Shown: positions 1 to 29,152 of the stretch, one piece after another
Position numbering within the stretch: position 1 is the first letter of the stretch
How the letters are laid out: every line of letters begins with the position of its first letter
From: Parcubacteria group bacterium
Lineage (GTDB): Bacteria; Patescibacteriota; Minisyncoccia; Phycocordibacterales; Zambryskibacteraceae
Length of the DNA stretch: 43,177 bases
Direction of reading: 5' to 3'
Assembly: GCA_028286565.1 (NCBI GenBank)
Contig: JAQBRH010000006.1
Location: forward strand, 1-43,177
Position numbers and translations under genes: made by a program
The notes under the pieces: generated by a model
Database searches by the model: none
What the model was told of the DNA's origin: nothing
Seen by the model: the letters and a program-made list of their open reading frames with translations, nothing else

Positions 1-872
1 AAATCCGTTGATATCATGGGGAACACCAAAAGCGAAGGCAATTCACTGGCGCATTCCTGACACTGAAACACGAAAGCGTGGGTAGCGAACGGGATTAGAT
101 ACCCCGGTAGTCCACGCCCTAAACGATCTCTACTAGCTTTGGGAGGAATCGACCCCTTCCGAGGCGTAGCTAACGCGTTAAGTAGAGCGCCTGGGTAGTA
201 CGACCGCAAGGTTAAAACTCAAAGGAATAGACGGGGACTTGCACAAGCAGTGGATTATGCGGTTTAATTCGACGACAAACGAAAAACCTTACCAGGGTTA
301 GAAATCTACGTGAAGCCATTTGGAAACAGATGGCGTCCGCAAGGACTCGTAGACAGGTGATGCATGGCCGTCGTCAGTTCGTGATTTGAATTGTTCCCTT
401 AAGTGGGGTAACGAACGCAACCCTCGTTGCCAGTTACAAGTGTCTGGCGAGACTGCCCCGGTTTGTGCGCGTGAACCGATATGAATAATATTGGGTTCGC
501 GAATACAAACCGGGGAGGAAGGCGAGGATGACGCCAGGTCAGCATGTCCCTCTGATACCCTGGGCCACACGCATAATACAATCGCCGCTACAACGGGTCG
601 CGACGCCGCAAGGCTGAGCTAATCCTAAGAAAAGCGGCGCCAGTTCGGATTGGGGGCTGCAACTCGACCCCATGAAGCCGGAATTGCTAGTAATCGCAGG
701 TCAGCTATACTGCGGTGAATACGTTCTCAAGTCTTGTACTCACCGCCCGTCAACTCAAGGGAGATGGGAGTACCCGAAGTCCCGTTTATGCGGGCCTACG
801 GTAAGCTCATCGACAGGGAGTAAGTCGTAACAAGGCACGGGTAGCGGAAGCTGCTCGTGGAGTAATTCAATT
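1..872 (+). rRNA. rrs: 16S rRNA gene, 3' half (5' part outside window; mature 3' end approximate)
   Basis: Conserved 16S blocks GGATTAGATACCC, AAACTCAAAGGAATAGACGGGG, CGCAACCC, TTGTACTCACCGCCCGTC, AAGTCGTAACAAGG, and helix 45 (836-845 / GGAA / 850-859). Shortened h39 and h44 and the GGAATAGAC variant fit Patescibacteria. The end coordinate assumes a canonical tail length. Confidence 0.97.
456..515 (+). other. Extended hairpin insertion in 16S helix 40
   Basis: CCCCGGTTTGT (456-466) pairs perfectly with ACAAACCGGGG (505-515). The inner stems are GTGAACC/GGTTCGC and GATAT/ATATT. It lies between ACTG and AGGAAGG, where most bacteria have a ~15-nt hairpin. Confidence 0.85.
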
Positions 873-1069: not shown

Positions 1070-1098
1070 TTGCACAATAAAACTAAAAAGTGTACAGT
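1070..1098 (+). promoter_or_regulatory. Sigma70-type promoter of the orphan membrane-protein gene
   Basis: TTGCAC (1070-1075), 17-nt spacer, TACAGT (1093-1098). Confidence 0.6.
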
Positions 1099-1128
1099 GC
1101 AAAAAGACCTTACCTAGGGAGATTCCCC

Positions 1129-1347
1129 ATGAAAACCACGTTTAGGTTCGATAGCCCCCGGATCACCGGTACACCGCTTGCGGCTCCGCCAAACCCTCGT
1201 TTTGGCGAGGATGAAGCCCCGAGGAAGTCTCGGCTCGCCGCCTTTGTGGACGGCCTCATCTGCGGGCTCCTCGTCCTCTGCCTGGGCGGCCTTCTGATCT
1301 ATGTTGCCGGGAGCCTCGCGCTCTTTTTGTGGCACCGGATCTTTTGA
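1129..1347 (+). CDS. Small hypothetical membrane protein (72 aa, C-terminal hydrophobic segment)
   Basis: ATG at 1129 is preceded by GGAGA (1118-1122) and has its own promoter and terminator. Hydrophobic stretch GLICGLLVLCLGGLLIYVAGSLALFLW. The track start at 1090 lies inside the promoter. Confidence 0.7.
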   Translation: MKTTFRFDSPRITGTPLAAPPNPRFGEDEAPRKSRLAAFVDGLICGLLVLCLGGLLIYVAGSLALFLWHRIF

Positions 1348-3573: not shown

Positions 3574-3590
3574 CATTTTTGTGATATAAT
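3563..3590 (+). promoter_or_regulatory. Sigma70 promoter with extended -10
   Basis: TTGCAG, 16-nt spacer, TG-A-TATAAT (3585-3590). Confidence 0.7.
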
Positions 3591-3624
3591 ACCTACCAGA
3601 CCACCCGTTCAACCAGGAGATCCA

Positions 3625-3909
3625 ATGATCGCAGTATCGCAATTGGTTCCAGATGATCGTGGAAGAGAGAAGCATCAGATCCTCGCGAGCAATGATCCCC
3701 GCAGATTCGCCGAGGTGGCCCGCCGGCTTTTCCAGGAGGGATCCGCGATCTTCATGCGGTCGGAGACCGAGGAAGGCCTCGACCTCGTCGATGAAGCGCT
3801 CCACTATGCGGAGTCCGGCCATCCCGAGTTTTGCGACCCCGGATTGCTGGGGCAGATCAAAGATTTCAACGGCCGGCTCGGGAGAAACGAACCTCTCGAT
3901 CACGACTGA
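3625..3909 (+). CDS. Hypothetical protein (94 aa), monocistronic orphan
   Basis: Own promoter, AGGAGA 4 nt before ATG, terminator after the stop; no family recognised. Confidence 0.7.
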   Translation: MIAVSQLVPDDRGREKHQILASNDPRRFAEVARRLFQEGSAIFMRSETEEGLDLVDEALHYAESGHPEFCDPGLLGQIKDFNGRLGRNEPLDHD

Positions 3910-3925
3910 ACTCGCATTTTGTACT

Positions 3926-3952
3926 GAGCGGACCTTCGGGGCCGCTCTTTTT
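3926..3952 (+). terminator. Intrinsic terminator
   Basis: GAGCGG-A-CC-TTCG-GG-G-CCGCTC followed by TTTTT. Confidence 0.8.
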
Positions 3953-3977
3953 CTTTGTTTGTTATATAATGGGACAA

Positions 3978-5723
3978 ATGGACGATCCAAATAAGGTTAC
4001 ATACTTCGGCGAGACGGATTCCAGGAACAAACGCGTTGCCTTTGGCATTAAATCCAAAGACCGGGCCAAGCATATGTACGTGATCGGGAAGACGGGCATG
4101 GGAAAGTCGACCCTCCTCGAGAACCTGGCTATTCAAGACATCCAGAACGGGAACGGCGTGGCGTTCATCGACCCGCACGGAGGCACGGCAGAAAAACTTC
4201 TTGAATATATCCCGCAGGACCGTATTAAGGACGTACTCTACTTTGCACCCTTTGACCTCGAACACCCGGTCTCTTTTAATGTGATGGAGGACGTCGGCGC
4301 GGACAAGCGCCACCTCGTGGTGAACGGGCTCATGTCGACCTTCGAGAAGATCTGGGTCGACGCTTGGAGCGCCCGCATGGCCTACATTTTAAATAACACC
4401 CTCCTTGCCCTCCTCGAATTCCCCGGAGCGACGCTCCTCGGCGTGAACCGCATGCTCGCGGATAAGGAATATCGAAAGAAAGTTGTGAATAATGTAAAAG
4501 ATCCGTCGGTCAAAGCGTTTTGGACCGAAGAGTTTGCGGGCTACACCGAGAAGTTCGCCGCCGAAGCCACTCCGGCTATTCAAAACAAGGTTGGACAGTT
4601 CACATCGAACCCGCTCGTGCGAAACCTCATCGGTCAAAGCGTTTCCACATTTGATATTAGGAAATTCATGGATGAGAAGAAGATCCTCATTGTGAACCTC
4701 TCGAAGGGCCGCGTCGGCGAAGGCAATGCGAACCTCATAGGTTCGATGCTCATCACCAAAATTTATCTCGCGGCCATGAGCCGCGCCGACCGAAGCGAGG
4801 CCGAACTCTCAAAGCTTCCGAATTTCTATCTCTATGTGGACGAGTTCCAATCGTTTGCGAACAAATCATTCGCCGATATTTTGTCCGAAGCCCGCAAATA
4901 TAAATTGAACCTCACCATCGCCCACCAATACATCGAGCAGATGGAAGAAGAAGTGAGGGATGCGGTGTTCGGAAACGTAGGCACCATGATCGCCTTCAGG
5001 GTGGGTGCCTTTGATGCGGAAGTTCTGGAAAAGGAATTTGCTCCGACCTTCACCGCCGAGGACCTCGTCAATCTCGGATTCACCCAAGTCTATCTAAAGC
5101 TCATGATCGACGGCGTGTCATCCCAGCCCTTCTCGGCCACAACGACCGCCCCGATCCCTCGTCCGCCGGTAAGCTACAAAGAAGAGGCCATCGAGAGCTC
5201 CCGCGCCCAATACACGAAGCCTCGCGCAGAGGTAGAAAAGAACATCAATGACTGGCACGAAGAGGGCAAGGTCGAACGACCTGCCCGCGCACCGGAGCGG
5301 TCTGCCCGCCCTGCAAGCGAGAGCTCTCCCGGCAGGTACGAGCGCCCGGAGCGGTCAAGCGAGGCTCCCGCTCGAAGGTCTGAACCGGCGCCGATCGATA
5401 TCCGCGGGAGGAAACCGGAAAGAGAAGCTCCTAAACAAGAGCGCCGTACTCCTCCGCCGGCCGGAGACGACTTCAAGCCCCTTGCCTCGATCTCCCTTGC
5501 CGACCTCAACAAAAAAAGCGACAACCAGCGTCAGCCGAGCCCGAAGAATATTTCCGATCTCAGAAGCGTCCTTGCCACGATCGTGAAGACTCCGGCCGAA
5601 GCGAAGCCTGCTCCTCATTCCGCGCCGAATCCCCAGCCTCAATCGACCCCGGCCCCAAAGCAAGATACGCCAAAGGAAGTTCCCGAAGCCGAGCTTAAAG
5701 CGCTTTTAGGAGTAGACGAATAA
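3978..5723 (+). CDS. VirD4/TraG/HerA-like (FtsK-HerA superfamily) P-loop ATPase with a low-complexity C-terminal tail
   Basis: Walker A GKTGMGKS, FIDPHG, Walker B LYVDEFQ, EARKYKLNLTIAHQ. Start placed at ATG 3978, 7 nt after TATAAT; the longer track ORF crosses a terminator. Confidence 0.88.
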   Translation: MDDPNKVTYFGETDSRNKRVAFGIKSKDRAKHMYVIGKTGMGKSTLLENLAIQDIQNGNGVAFIDPHGGTAEKLLEYIPQDRIKDVLYFAPFDLEHPVSFNVMEDVGADKRHLVVNGLMSTFEKIWVDAWSARMAYILNNTLLALLEFPGATLLGVNRMLADKEYRKKVVNNVKDPSVKAFWTEEFAGYTEKFAAEATPAIQNKVGQFTSNPLVRNLIGQSVSTFDIRKFMDEKKILIVNLSKGRVGEGNANLIGSMLITKIYLAAMSRADRSEAELSKLPNFYLYVDEFQSFANKSFADILSEARKYKLNLTIAHQYIEQMEEEVRDAVFGNVGTMIAFRVGAFDAEVLEKEFAPTFTAEDLVNLGFTQVYLKLMIDGVSSQPFSATTTAPIPRPPVSYKEEAIESSRAQYTKPRAEVEKNINDWHEEGKVERPARAPERSARPASESSPGRYERPERSSEAPARRSEPAPIDIRGRKPEREAPKQERRTPPPAGDDFKPLASISLADLNKKSDNQRQPSPKNISDLRSVLATIVKTPAEAKPAPHSAPNPQPQSTPAPKQDTPKEVPEAELKALLGVDE

Positions 5724-28084: not shown

Positions 28085-28107
28085 AAAAAAACCCGACCGA
28101 AGTCGGG
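28085..28107 (-). terminator. Intrinsic terminator of the epimerase gene
   Basis: On the minus strand CCCGAC-TTCG-GTCGGG followed by T7. Confidence 0.85.
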
Positions 28108-28110
28108 GTG

Positions 28111-29079
28111 CTACACCAGAGATCCCTGCTTGATCCTCGACTCGACCCAGTGATAGGTCGCGGCGAGGGATTTGCGAAGGTCGCGCCTCGGCTTCCATCC
28201 GAGCTTATCCTGCGCCAGATCGTTCGACGCGTGCCTGATCTGGCCGCCGGTCGGACCCTGAATGTACTTCTTGACCAGGGTCTTGCCGGCCGCTTCGGAG
28301 ATGATGTCCACCAAGCCGTTGATGGTGATCGACTGCGAATCGTCCGGCCCGAGATTCACGGGGCCTTCGAAGTTTGACGTCATCAGAGCTTCGATGCCGT
28401 CGAGGAGATCGTCGATGTAGATGAACGGACGAAGCTGTTCGCCGTTGCCCCAGATCTCGATCTCCCCGCCGTCTTCGGCCATAGCCACCTTGCGGGAAAT
28501 GGCGGCGGGGGATTTCTCCCGGCCTCCATCGAATACTCCGCCCGGTCCGAAACAGTTGTGGAAACGGGCCACGCGGATCTTCAGACCGTGATTGTCCGCG
28601 AACGCCTTGTACATGCGCTCGCTGTACATCTTCTCGTAGCCGTAGTTCGAAGGGGGATGAACCGGGTAGGCGTCCTCCTCGTGTCCTTCGACGTCATCTG
28701 GGTAGATGCACACCGAGGAAGAGTAGAAGACGAGGCCGTCGAACTTGGCCTCCATGAGGCGACGGAGGACATGCATGTTGATGAGTGCGGAGTTCACGAG
28801 GATCTCCGCGTCATTGTCTCCCGTGAACACGTGTCCGGCTCCGCCCATGTCGGCGGCGAACTGGTACACGCGGTCGAACGAGTGTCCGCGATCGATGAGG
28901 GCGCCGACGTATCGGGGGTCCCTCAGGTCGACGAGATGAAAATCATCGGCCGGCGTGTCTTCGAAGGACGGTTCCTCCAGATCCGCTCCCACAACCTGCC
29001 ATCCTTCTGTCTTCAGGAACTTGACCATGTTGTGGCCAATGAATCCTCCGGCTCCGCAAACCAAGGCTCTTTTCTGCAC
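28111..29079 (-). CDS. GDP-mannose 3,5-epimerase-like extended SDR (GTG start)
   Basis: GAGGFIG, AADMGG, SSSVCIYP (Cys retained), YGYEK, RFHNCFGP, GGREKSPAA (Lys retained). Confidence 0.85.
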   Translation of the reverse strand: MQKRALVCGAGGFIGHNMVKFLKTEGWQVVGADLEEPSFEDTPADDFHLVDLRDPRYVGALIDRGHSFDRVYQFAADMGGAGHVFTGDNDAEILVNSALINMHVLRRLMEAKFDGLVFYSSSVCIYPDDVEGHEEDAYPVHPPSNYGYEKMYSERMYKAFADNHGLKIRVARFHNCFGPGGVFDGGREKSPAAISRKVAMAEDGGEIEIWGNGEQLRPFIYIDDLLDGIEALMTSNFEGPVNLGPDDSQSITINGLVDIISEAAGKTLVKKYIQGPTGGQIRHASNDLAQDKLGWKPRRDLRKSLAATYHWVESRIKQGSLV

Positions 29080-29124
29080 GATATTCTCCGTTGAGTGGTG
29101 TAGTTGGTACGTAGGTCCGGCAAA

Positions 29125-29152
29125 ACTATAGCACTTTAATCTTTAATTTCAA
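29125..29152 (-). promoter_or_regulatory. Sigma70 promoter with extended -10 for the epimerase gene
   Basis: TTGAAA, 16-nt spacer, TG-C-TATAGT. Confidence 0.65.

Follow-up and report, generated by a model that had tools for sequence, protein, structure and literature searches.

A start-anchored GGAG motif marks GC-rich, stand-alone accessory genes in a Parcubacteria genome without an anti-Shine-Dalgarno sequence

Pairing of a Shine-Dalgarno (SD) motif with the anti-SD of 16S rRNA is the textbook way of finding a start codon, but in the lineage described here the anti-SD is missing and an SD-like core is kept, apparently under constraint, on accessory genes only. The window analysed, a stretch of 43,177 nucleotides, is contig C7 of a soil Parcubacteria assembly of the candidate phyla radiation (CPR), referred to as G000 (666,698 bases in 7 contigs, GC 0.516, 97.6% complete), and it starts within the sole 16S rRNA gene of this assembly. 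A first-pass annotation of the window had pointed out three stand-alone genes with GGAGA shortly before the start codon, and had proposed two initiation regimes in one genome. Comparison of the whole assembly with its relatives showed a discrete class of GC-rich, stand-alone genes with fast turnover that carry a start-anchored GGAG, whereas the core genes are without it. The three GGAGA sites are members of this genome-wide class, which comprises 59 called genes, with about 20 expected by chance, and about a dozen small uncalled open reading frames (ORFs).

The part of the 16S rRNA gene within the window (1-872, plus strand) corresponds to Rfam model positions 684-1533, i.e. the 3' part of the gene. 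Behind helix 45 (836-859), its 3' tail at 860-873 reads GAGTAATTCAATTT where GATCACCTCCTTA would be canonical. The RNA form of the tail is GAGUAAUUCAAUUU, which contains no CCUCC. The same tail type, GGA[G/A/T]T..TTC.., was found in 29/29 loci of relatives from the genus and 16 further families, none of which has CCTCC at this place. Thus, the statement of the first-pass annotation that the anti-SD is gone applies not only to G000 but across the order. A canonical tail was present in 40 of the 201 sampled genomes of the taxonomic class, and in none of the same-order genomes listed. No second gene for the small-subunit (SSU) rRNA was found in G000 or in the near-complete G007, G034 and G004; G000, G007 and G034 have one each. 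G017 and G040 gave no SSU match at threshold, and their 16S pieces lie at contig ends. Because the sole 16S rRNA lacks CCUCC, and does so order-wide, classical SD:anti-SD pairing is unavailable.

Genes of G000 were called with our own crude finder, which applies codon log-odds from long ORFs, takes longest-ORF starts and is blind to SD motifs. Of the 689 genes called, 686 starts were used for positional counts. GGAG started at -12, -11, -10 and -9 in 7, 9, 18 and 9 of the 686 genes, respectively, with -10 as the modal position, while most other positions yielded 0-4. The positional enrichment on which the existence of a separate gene class depended is thus present genome-wide at -12 to -9. For all further counts the motif was defined as GGAG or GAGG inside -16 to -4 and compared with two control windows. 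Genes with an upstream gap of at least 40 nt had the motif in 59/326 cases, compared to 21/326 and 19/326 in the control windows. With a gap of less than 10 nt the motif occurred in 11/212 genes, below the controls with 22/212 and 31/212. The closest relative, G017 (anti-SD-less, GC 0.485, 506 kb analysed), exhibited the motif in 30/220 genes versus 10 and 8 in the controls, and G040 (another family of the same order, anti-SD-less, 280 kb analysed) in 9/104 versus 1 and 5. The spacer between GGAG and the start was mostly 5-8 nt, as judged from 81 GGAG sites in four anti-SD-less genomes.

The best promoter matches of G000 genes fall into two distance groups, a bimodal distribution with 5-9 nt or 25-59 nt to the start. 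The -10 box ends 5-9 nt from the start in 51 genes, which are leaderless, and only one of them has the motif. On the other hand, 71 genes have a promoter 25-59 nt upstream together with a gap of at least 40 nt, and 33 of these carry it. Separate start classes do coexist in this genome, as had been proposed, and four can be told apart: leaderless genes, tightly coupled genes, shared genes with A/U-rich leaders, and GGAG-led stand-alone genes. Among small uncalled ORFs behind a promoter, 25 had the motif and 12 had it in the control window.

The distribution of the motif follows gene sharing. A gene was regarded as shared with G007 (same genus, anti-SD-less, complete in 3 contigs, GC 0.434) if a tblastn match with E below 1e-5 covered at least 60% of its length. 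When only G000 genes with their promoter at 25-59 nt from the start are considered, 34/53 unshared but 2/34 shared ones have the motif (p = 2.6e-8), and the latter figure fits the earlier remark that operon heads are without the motif. The reciprocal test in G007 gave 13/34 unshared versus 0/37 shared genes, with a flat control window (1/34 versus 3/37). Only 6/59 motif genes were matched in G007, most of these matches being paralogues or mis-called starts, as compared with 155/212 and 107/143 packed genes. In G017, 15/59 motif genes were matched at a median identity of 48% (33-80% in the 12 compared pairs), versus 161/212, 104/143 and 167/267 of the other genes at 84-88% identity. Pfam families were assigned to 11 of 57 class proteins and 46 remained without; two mis-started genes, a UvrA-like gene and C7 23442, had been left out. 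The families are HD (two), ComEC, response regulator (two), M16 peptidase, thymidylate kinase, Big_2, ABC transporter, Band 7 and epimerase. The orphan enrichment of the class is based on the sharing with relatives and not on Pfam, for which there is no matched control.

The composition of the class is unlike that of the host genome, and its presence is patchy among close relatives. In G000 the class genes have a GC content of 0.550 versus about 0.53, a lower codon score and a shorter length. The contrast is sharper in G007, where GC is 0.577 versus 0.42 and GC at third codon positions (GC3) 0.755 versus 0.41 (p = 1e-9 to 1e-13). There, the members form single-gene islets with a GC of 0.54-0.62 in surroundings of 0.35-0.54, and the GC-rich stretch opens in the leader and closes at the terminator. 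Conversely, of the G007 stand-alone genes with a GC3 more than 0.20 above the genome median, 18/36 have the motif (control window 1/36), compared to 7/221 of all other stand-alone genes. Within a GC3 difference (dGC3) of 0.05-0.20 it was found in 2/49 genes, so that there is no ameliorated intermediate class. GC3-rich stand-alone genes carry the motif in 6/9 cases in G017 and in 4/9 in G040. The nearest named relatives of two class members are Gemmatimonadota and Acidobacteriota proteins of low identity, which is a hint on origin only. Viral-contig scans with three class queries yielded no relatives beyond one weak partial match of 47 residues; no search for an integrase was made.

Conservation of the core was assessed between G000 and G017. 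Three of the 15 class pairs were left out, namely the UvrA-like gene and C7 23442, both with miscalled starts, and an ABC-transporter paralogue at 26% identity. Starts in G017 were re-derived from the alignments; longest-ORF starts are often too long in that genome. GGAG or GAGG at -18 to -3 was kept in 12/12 usable pairs, whereas control 4-mers from the same leaders recurred within 3 nt in 68/276 cases, or 25% (binomial p = 5e-8). An identical core was present within 3 nt in 11/12 pairs, as against 0-6/12 for other leader positions and 1-3/12 for the spacer, with the exception of the 4-mer one base past the modal core (9/12). As far as these aligned leaders show, the GGAG core is the best-kept part of the class leaders between anti-SD-less species, and by the same comparison there is no decay of the motif. 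Conservation of the 100 nt upstream is 0.64 in class and other genes alike, while that of the coding DNA is 0.55 in the class versus 0.77 in the others.

A metzincin-like family of the class, fam438, allowed a comparison over a larger distance. It was found in 5/22 genomes of the genus at 22-38% identity, with an invariant HExxHxxGxxH. All five members have GGAG[G/A] 4-7 nt 5' of the ATG within otherwise unrelated leaders, and all five genes are GC-richer than their own flanks. One genome per genus was searched in 119 other genera of the order, and neither fam438 nor a second class family was found there. A scan of the fam438 alignment against metagenomes, covering 4 of 64 parts, gave four weak partial matches.

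The leaders of the class have a style of their own. Their 12 nt 5' of the core contain 36-47% C and 3-15% G, as opposed to the A/U-rich leaders of the shared genes. Near the predicted transcript start the leaders are enriched in the word TAGA(A) (27/123, z = 5.2); CTCA is another enriched leader word (34/123, z = 4.2). The core is paired in 64% of the minimum free energy structures, a figure without a matched control.

The motif itself was compared between the four anti-SD-less genomes and a single anti-SD-bearing relative, G224, of which the first 400 kb of its contig C1 were analysed. GGAG is followed by A in 44% and by G in 33% of the 81 sites in the anti-SD-less genomes. In G224 the following base is G in 75% of the sites and the preceding one A in 69%, which yields a full (A)AGGAGG, and the spacer peaks at 6-7 nt (16 sites). 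The longest canonical SD match has a mean of 5.1 in the anti-SD-less genomes versus 6.5 in G224 (p = 6e-5), and the C content in the 12 nt upstream of the core is 36% versus 21%. The GGAGA of the first-pass annotation is the typical form in anti-SD-less genomes. SD use in G224 is low and skewed to unshared genes (17/81 versus 5/70 shared, gap at least 40 nt), and genes with a dGC3 above 0.15 have an SD in 11/17 cases. Because SD motifs are rare in core genes even in the anti-SD-bearing G224, their scarcity there appears to predate anti-SD loss, or to be independent of it.

The three GGAGA genes of the window are monocistronic units with a promoter, a leader of 30-45 nt, GGAGA 4-6 nt from the start and their own terminator, just as first described. 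The distance from the end of the -10 box to the start is 30 nt in ORF1129, 34 nt in ORF3625 and 45 nt in the epimerase gene. ORF1129 lies on the plus strand behind a promoter at 1070-1098 that was read from the sequence and is kept in G017 (TTGCAC 1070-1075, 17 nt, TACAGT 1093-1098). Its leader (1099-1128) contains GGAGA at 1118-1122 with a spacer of 6 nt. The ORF (1129-1347, ATG at 1129) encodes 72 residues with a C-terminal hydrophobic stretch and no Pfam family (GC 0.61, GC3 0.71), and the hairpin scan placed a terminator at 1357-1386, consisting of a hairpin at 1357-1376 and a T run. ORF3625, also on the plus strand, has an extended -10 element TGaTATAAT at 3582-3590, to which no -35 was assigned, and a leader at 3591-3624 with GGAGA at 3616-3620 and a 4-nt spacer. 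This ORF (3625-3909, ATG at 3625, 94 residues, GC 0.59, GC3 0.68) is an orphan without a Pfam family, and a search among 5.8 billion protein clusters retrieved a self-match only. A terminator-like hairpin at 3926-3947 followed by a T run (3926-3956) was recognised by eye and is unlisted by the hairpin scan. The gene that follows ORF3625 is leaderless, with an ATG at 3978 seven nt past a TATAAT (window 3964-3980); its longest-ORF start, TTG 3831, lies too far upstream and causes an overlap with ORF3625.

The third unit, on the minus strand, encodes an NAD-dependent epimerase/dehydratase assigned by its Pfam family (28111-29079, GTG at 29079, 322 residues, GC 0.60, GC3 0.78). Its promoter at 29125-29152 consists of TTGAAA (29152-29147), 16 nt and TATAGT (29130-29125), and its leader at 29080-29124 contains GGAGA at 29089-29085 with a spacer of 5 nt. 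A terminator hairpin was found at 28092-28107 by the hairpin scan. Both CCTAC and TCAAC, previously noted as common to the leaders of ORF3625 and the epimerase gene, are indeed seen in the two leaders. ORF1129 and ORF3625 were not called by the crude finder and were recovered by a separate small-ORF scan.

Several class genes occupy variable slots. The ORF1129 slot at 1099-1376 is located between the 16S terminator and a tRNA-Ile gene. Identity between G000 and G017 is about 88% in the promoter, in the first leader bases and in the terminator tail, and the interior is unalignable. G017 has a different small hydrophobic ORF in this place behind ...CAAGGAGATgcacATG, and G007 has no ORF there. 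The pattern looks like allele or cassette replacement, with breakpoints within the 5' untranslated region (5'UTR) and the terminator. At the ORF3625 slot of G007, the DNA between the same two conserved flanking genes is a different one, of 1.6 kb. For the epimerase, the identity is 79% in G017 and otherwise about 50% in many phyla; its GGAGA is unchanged in G017, while the adjoining bases differ. The fam438 alleles of G000 (C2:170977-172290) and G017 (C14) are near-identical in the promoter, the early leader and roughly the first 36 nt of the ORF, which encode the signal peptide. Because they are only 36-38% identical overall, this mosaic pattern is read as pointing to recombination inside the gene.

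A class gene is laid out as a sigma-70-type promoter, a C/A-rich and G-poor 5'UTR of 25-45 nt, GGAG 5-8 nt from the start and its own terminator. Core genes have starts that are leaderless, coupled to the preceding gene or preceded by A/U-rich leaders, in each case with the GGAG core missing. We give an even chance to the reading that GGAG has a function in the 5'UTR as an element anchored to the start, with a reader that is not the classical anti-SD. The core would have been inherited from an SD-using past of the flexible gene pool. It would most likely still be a site of ribosome recruitment or translation control, and may now be read by a protein or by another ribosomal site instead of the classical 16S tail. 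A wider version of this reading is more tentative, namely that anti-SD-less Parcubacteria use GGAG through a reader other than the 16S tail as a second initiation or control route, one that might be reserved for fast-evolving accessory genes, with leaderless or coupled starts serving the core genes.

The main rival explanation, which we regard as possible but doubtful, is that the core is a passenger. The class genes would be imports from SD-using, GC-richer donors, or belong to a pool that passes through anti-SD-bearing Parcubacteria, and the SD would be idle in this host and would seem conserved only through a replacement of alleles that outpaces its decay. The first-pass annotation had listed an acquisition relic among its options, and the atypical composition (GC3 0.755 versus 0.41 in the G007 class; GC 0.550 versus 0.53 and a lower codon score in G000), the single-gene GC-rich islets in surroundings with a GC of 0.41-0.47, and the patchy distribution, with 6/59 genes shared with G007 and 15/59 with G017, all agree with it. 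So do the 46/57 proteins without a Pfam family, the orphan status of ORF3625, the two members with nearest named relatives in Gemmatimonadota and Acidobacteriota, and the same link between GC3-rich genes and the SD in G224 (11/17). The motif is also shorter than that of G224, as partial decay would give. What the import account does not explain well is that the motif is conserved between anti-SD-less species, at 12/12 for the core versus 25% for the control words. In addition, the slots are orthologous, and their flanks are conserved like those of ordinary genes. The ORF1129 and fam438 slots share promoter and early leader while the ORF differs; with such shared flanks and differing ORFs, allele exchange needs donors with the same flanks, i.e. 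anti-SD-less congeners. The two tested families are confined to the genus among 120 sampled genera of the order, and no close donor was found, the epimerase being 79% identical in G017 but about 50% everywhere else. Finally, ameliorated intermediates are missing in G007 (2/49 at dGC3 0.05-0.20), and fam438 is GC-richer than its flanks in five hosts despite identities of 22-38%.

Three further explanations had been offered for the motif in the first pass, and each appears very improbable. Pairing of GGAG with another stretch of precursor or mature rRNA, such as a displaced CTCCT 90 nt past helix 45, is hard to credit, even though a CTCCT at 950-954 and a CCTCT at 959-963 do exist. The CTCCT was seen in G000 only, and the same-genus relatives have ATTCC, GTTCC, AGTCC or AATCC in its place. 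Moreover, each of the two words forms one strand in a conserved fold of the 16S trailer at 937-964 whose stems covary and in which GGAT (937-940) pairs with (A/C)TCC (950-953), interleaved with TAGAGG (943-948) and CCTCTA (959-964). The 16S part within the window (1-872) is without CTCC and has two CCTC, both of which are buried. A reversed variant of rRNA pairing, an 'inverted SD' of the tail GGAGU with a leader ACUCC, failed, with ACTCC in only 5/123 leaders. A CsrA/Rsm-type GGA-binding protein acting on the class leaders would suit a motif that contains GGA at a position overlapping the ribosome-binding site, which is where the GGA sites of CsrA targets lie. We nevertheless consider it highly unlikely: no CsrA gene (PF02599) was found in G000, where the best match reached 20.4 bits versus a cut-off of 27 and is located inside a 394-residue four-domain S1 protein. 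In the predicted folds there was also no excess of hairpins around the core. The faintest prospect is given to class mRNAs meant for the anti-SD-bearing ribosomes of a GC-rich host cell, as in an episymbiont-type attachment. Circumstantial support comes from the combination of an SD and GC-rich codon use in a cell with ribosomes unable to pair with this SD, and from the nearest named relatives of two members, which are proteins of GC-rich soil phyla. However, no transfer route is known, the promoters belong to the AT-rich type that is this bacterium's own, signal peptides or membrane helices sensible in the producer are seen in many members, and the same class exists in the anti-SD-bearing G224.

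Several points weigh against a functional, differently read GGAG element. No reader of GGAG was found. In a screen for a trans-acting anti-SD, the conservation of 203 non-coding CCUCC sites was followed in G017, G007 and G040, and no conserved site emerged apart from those of tRNA and rRNA genes: the sites present in both congeners map to tRNA genes or to contig ends (presumed rRNA), and for a few others conservation was limited to G017 or extended partly to G007. The 16S tail offers at most a 3-bp GGA:UUC match, and no cold-shock domain was found in G000. For bS21 there was a sub-threshold match (22.7 bits versus a cut-off of 27), and from the presence of the four-domain S1 protein nothing specific follows. 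The class leaders fold no better than shuffles (z = -0.02), with neither an excess nor a deficit of structure, and thus show neither a selected structure nor a selected lack of it. The atypical composition and the fast turnover fit a recent import, in which case the conservation could reflect donor selection, and the shorter, less canonical motif could be a partly decayed SD. All 12 conserved pairs come from one species pair, and beyond them the conservation is seen in one family. Gene calls and starts are those of a crude home-made finder, and the analysis extended to only a part of G017 (506 kb), of G040 (280 kb) and of G224 (400 kb).

Further features were observed around the rRNA gene and in the tRNA complement. 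The trailer fold at 937-964 is pseudoknot-like and conserved across the genus, with a 6-7 bp stem interleaved with GGAT/ATCC. Its stems covary among the relatives, with GGAT/ATCC replaced by GGAC/GTCC and TAGAGG/CCTCTA by GCAAG/CTTG, among others, and the fold may be a processing signal. The 16S transcription unit is closed by a terminator-like hairpin at 1042-1067, which is palindromic and was placed on the minus strand by the hairpin scan but is followed by TTTTG on the plus strand. Behind it are a protein ORF, the tRNA-Ile gene at 1494-1569 and then further protein-coding ORFs. Because protein ORFs and not a 23S gene come after the 16S gene, the rRNA genes of G000 appear to be unlinked. At about 440-520 of the window, 48 nt that the Rfam bacterial SSU model lacks are inserted into the 16S gene, adjoining a short deletion; insertions of such a kind are typical of CPR rRNA genes. 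ARAGORN predicted a tRNA with the anticodon TTA at C2:190667-190743 on the minus strand (a 'tRNA-Stop' that would read UAA), two tRNA-Ile(TAT) genes and one tRNA with an odd anticodon loop on C3. The ribosomal protein uL1 (PF00687) was not found in the 97.6% complete G000, while the same search matched all 14 control genomes.

If the core is functional, GGAG can be read without a 16S tail, and core and flexible genes are under different rules in one minimal cell. If it is a passenger, the class is a natural experiment on the expression of foreign genes after the host has discarded their signal, and the motif is a cheap marker of the flexible gene pool in CPR bacteria. In both cases, gene finders with a single start model will mis-start or miss the class, as our own finder did with two of the three genes in the window. 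In the portions of the literature consulted, supplements aside, we found no account of accessory genes that retain an SD-like motif in bacteria without an anti-SD.

The systems closest to the present one share some of its features. As in the classical SD/anti-SD initiation of E. coli and B. subtilis, a GGAG(G/A) core ends 5-8 nt before an ATG or GTG of leadered mRNAs. In contrast to it, the 16S partner is missing order-wide, the core is shorter and more often followed by A than by G, and the leader is C/A-rich and G-poor. In the available part of their survey, Tsurumaki, Saito, Tomita and Kanai (2022, RNA 28:1041, PMC9297842) describe that the anti-SD was lost in about half of the Parcubacteria, that the anti-SD-less group overlaps the group lacking uL1, and that SD helices are presumably unformed. 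G000, without an anti-SD motif and with no uL1 found, resembles these organisms; that part of the study concerns rRNA only and reports no SD-like motif on a subset of genes. As far as the accessible text of Amin et al. (2018, PLoS One 13:e0202767, PMC6107228) goes, organisms without a CCUCCU tail are in general also without a recognisable SD, but whole-genome motif finding of that kind would miss a minority class of accessory genes such as the one found here.

Like genomic islets, phage 'morons' and 'atypical' genes, the class is made of promoter-gene-terminator units of atypical composition, patchy distribution and mostly unknown function. Morons are horizontally acquired stand-alone genes of phages. 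Unlike islets and morons, the class showed no prophage context or viral relatives for three class queries, occupies orthologous slots with conserved flanks, and carries a translation signal that cannot be paired by the host rRNA. In the passages available of the GeneMarkS-2 preprint (bioRxiv 10.1101/193490), 'atypical' genes are more often GC-poorer than their host, whereas the class genes described here are GC-richer.

The Bacteroidota likewise combine, in one genome, a majority of genes without an SD and a small set with it. Initiation in this phylum is SD-independent with few SD-led exceptions such as rpsU, and the anti-SD is kept. About 3% of the genes of Bacteroides ovatus are SD genes according to the same portion of the preprint (bioRxiv 10.1101/193490). 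G000, by contrast, has lost the anti-SD, and accessory genes rather than a ribosomal protein gene make up its SD-like set.

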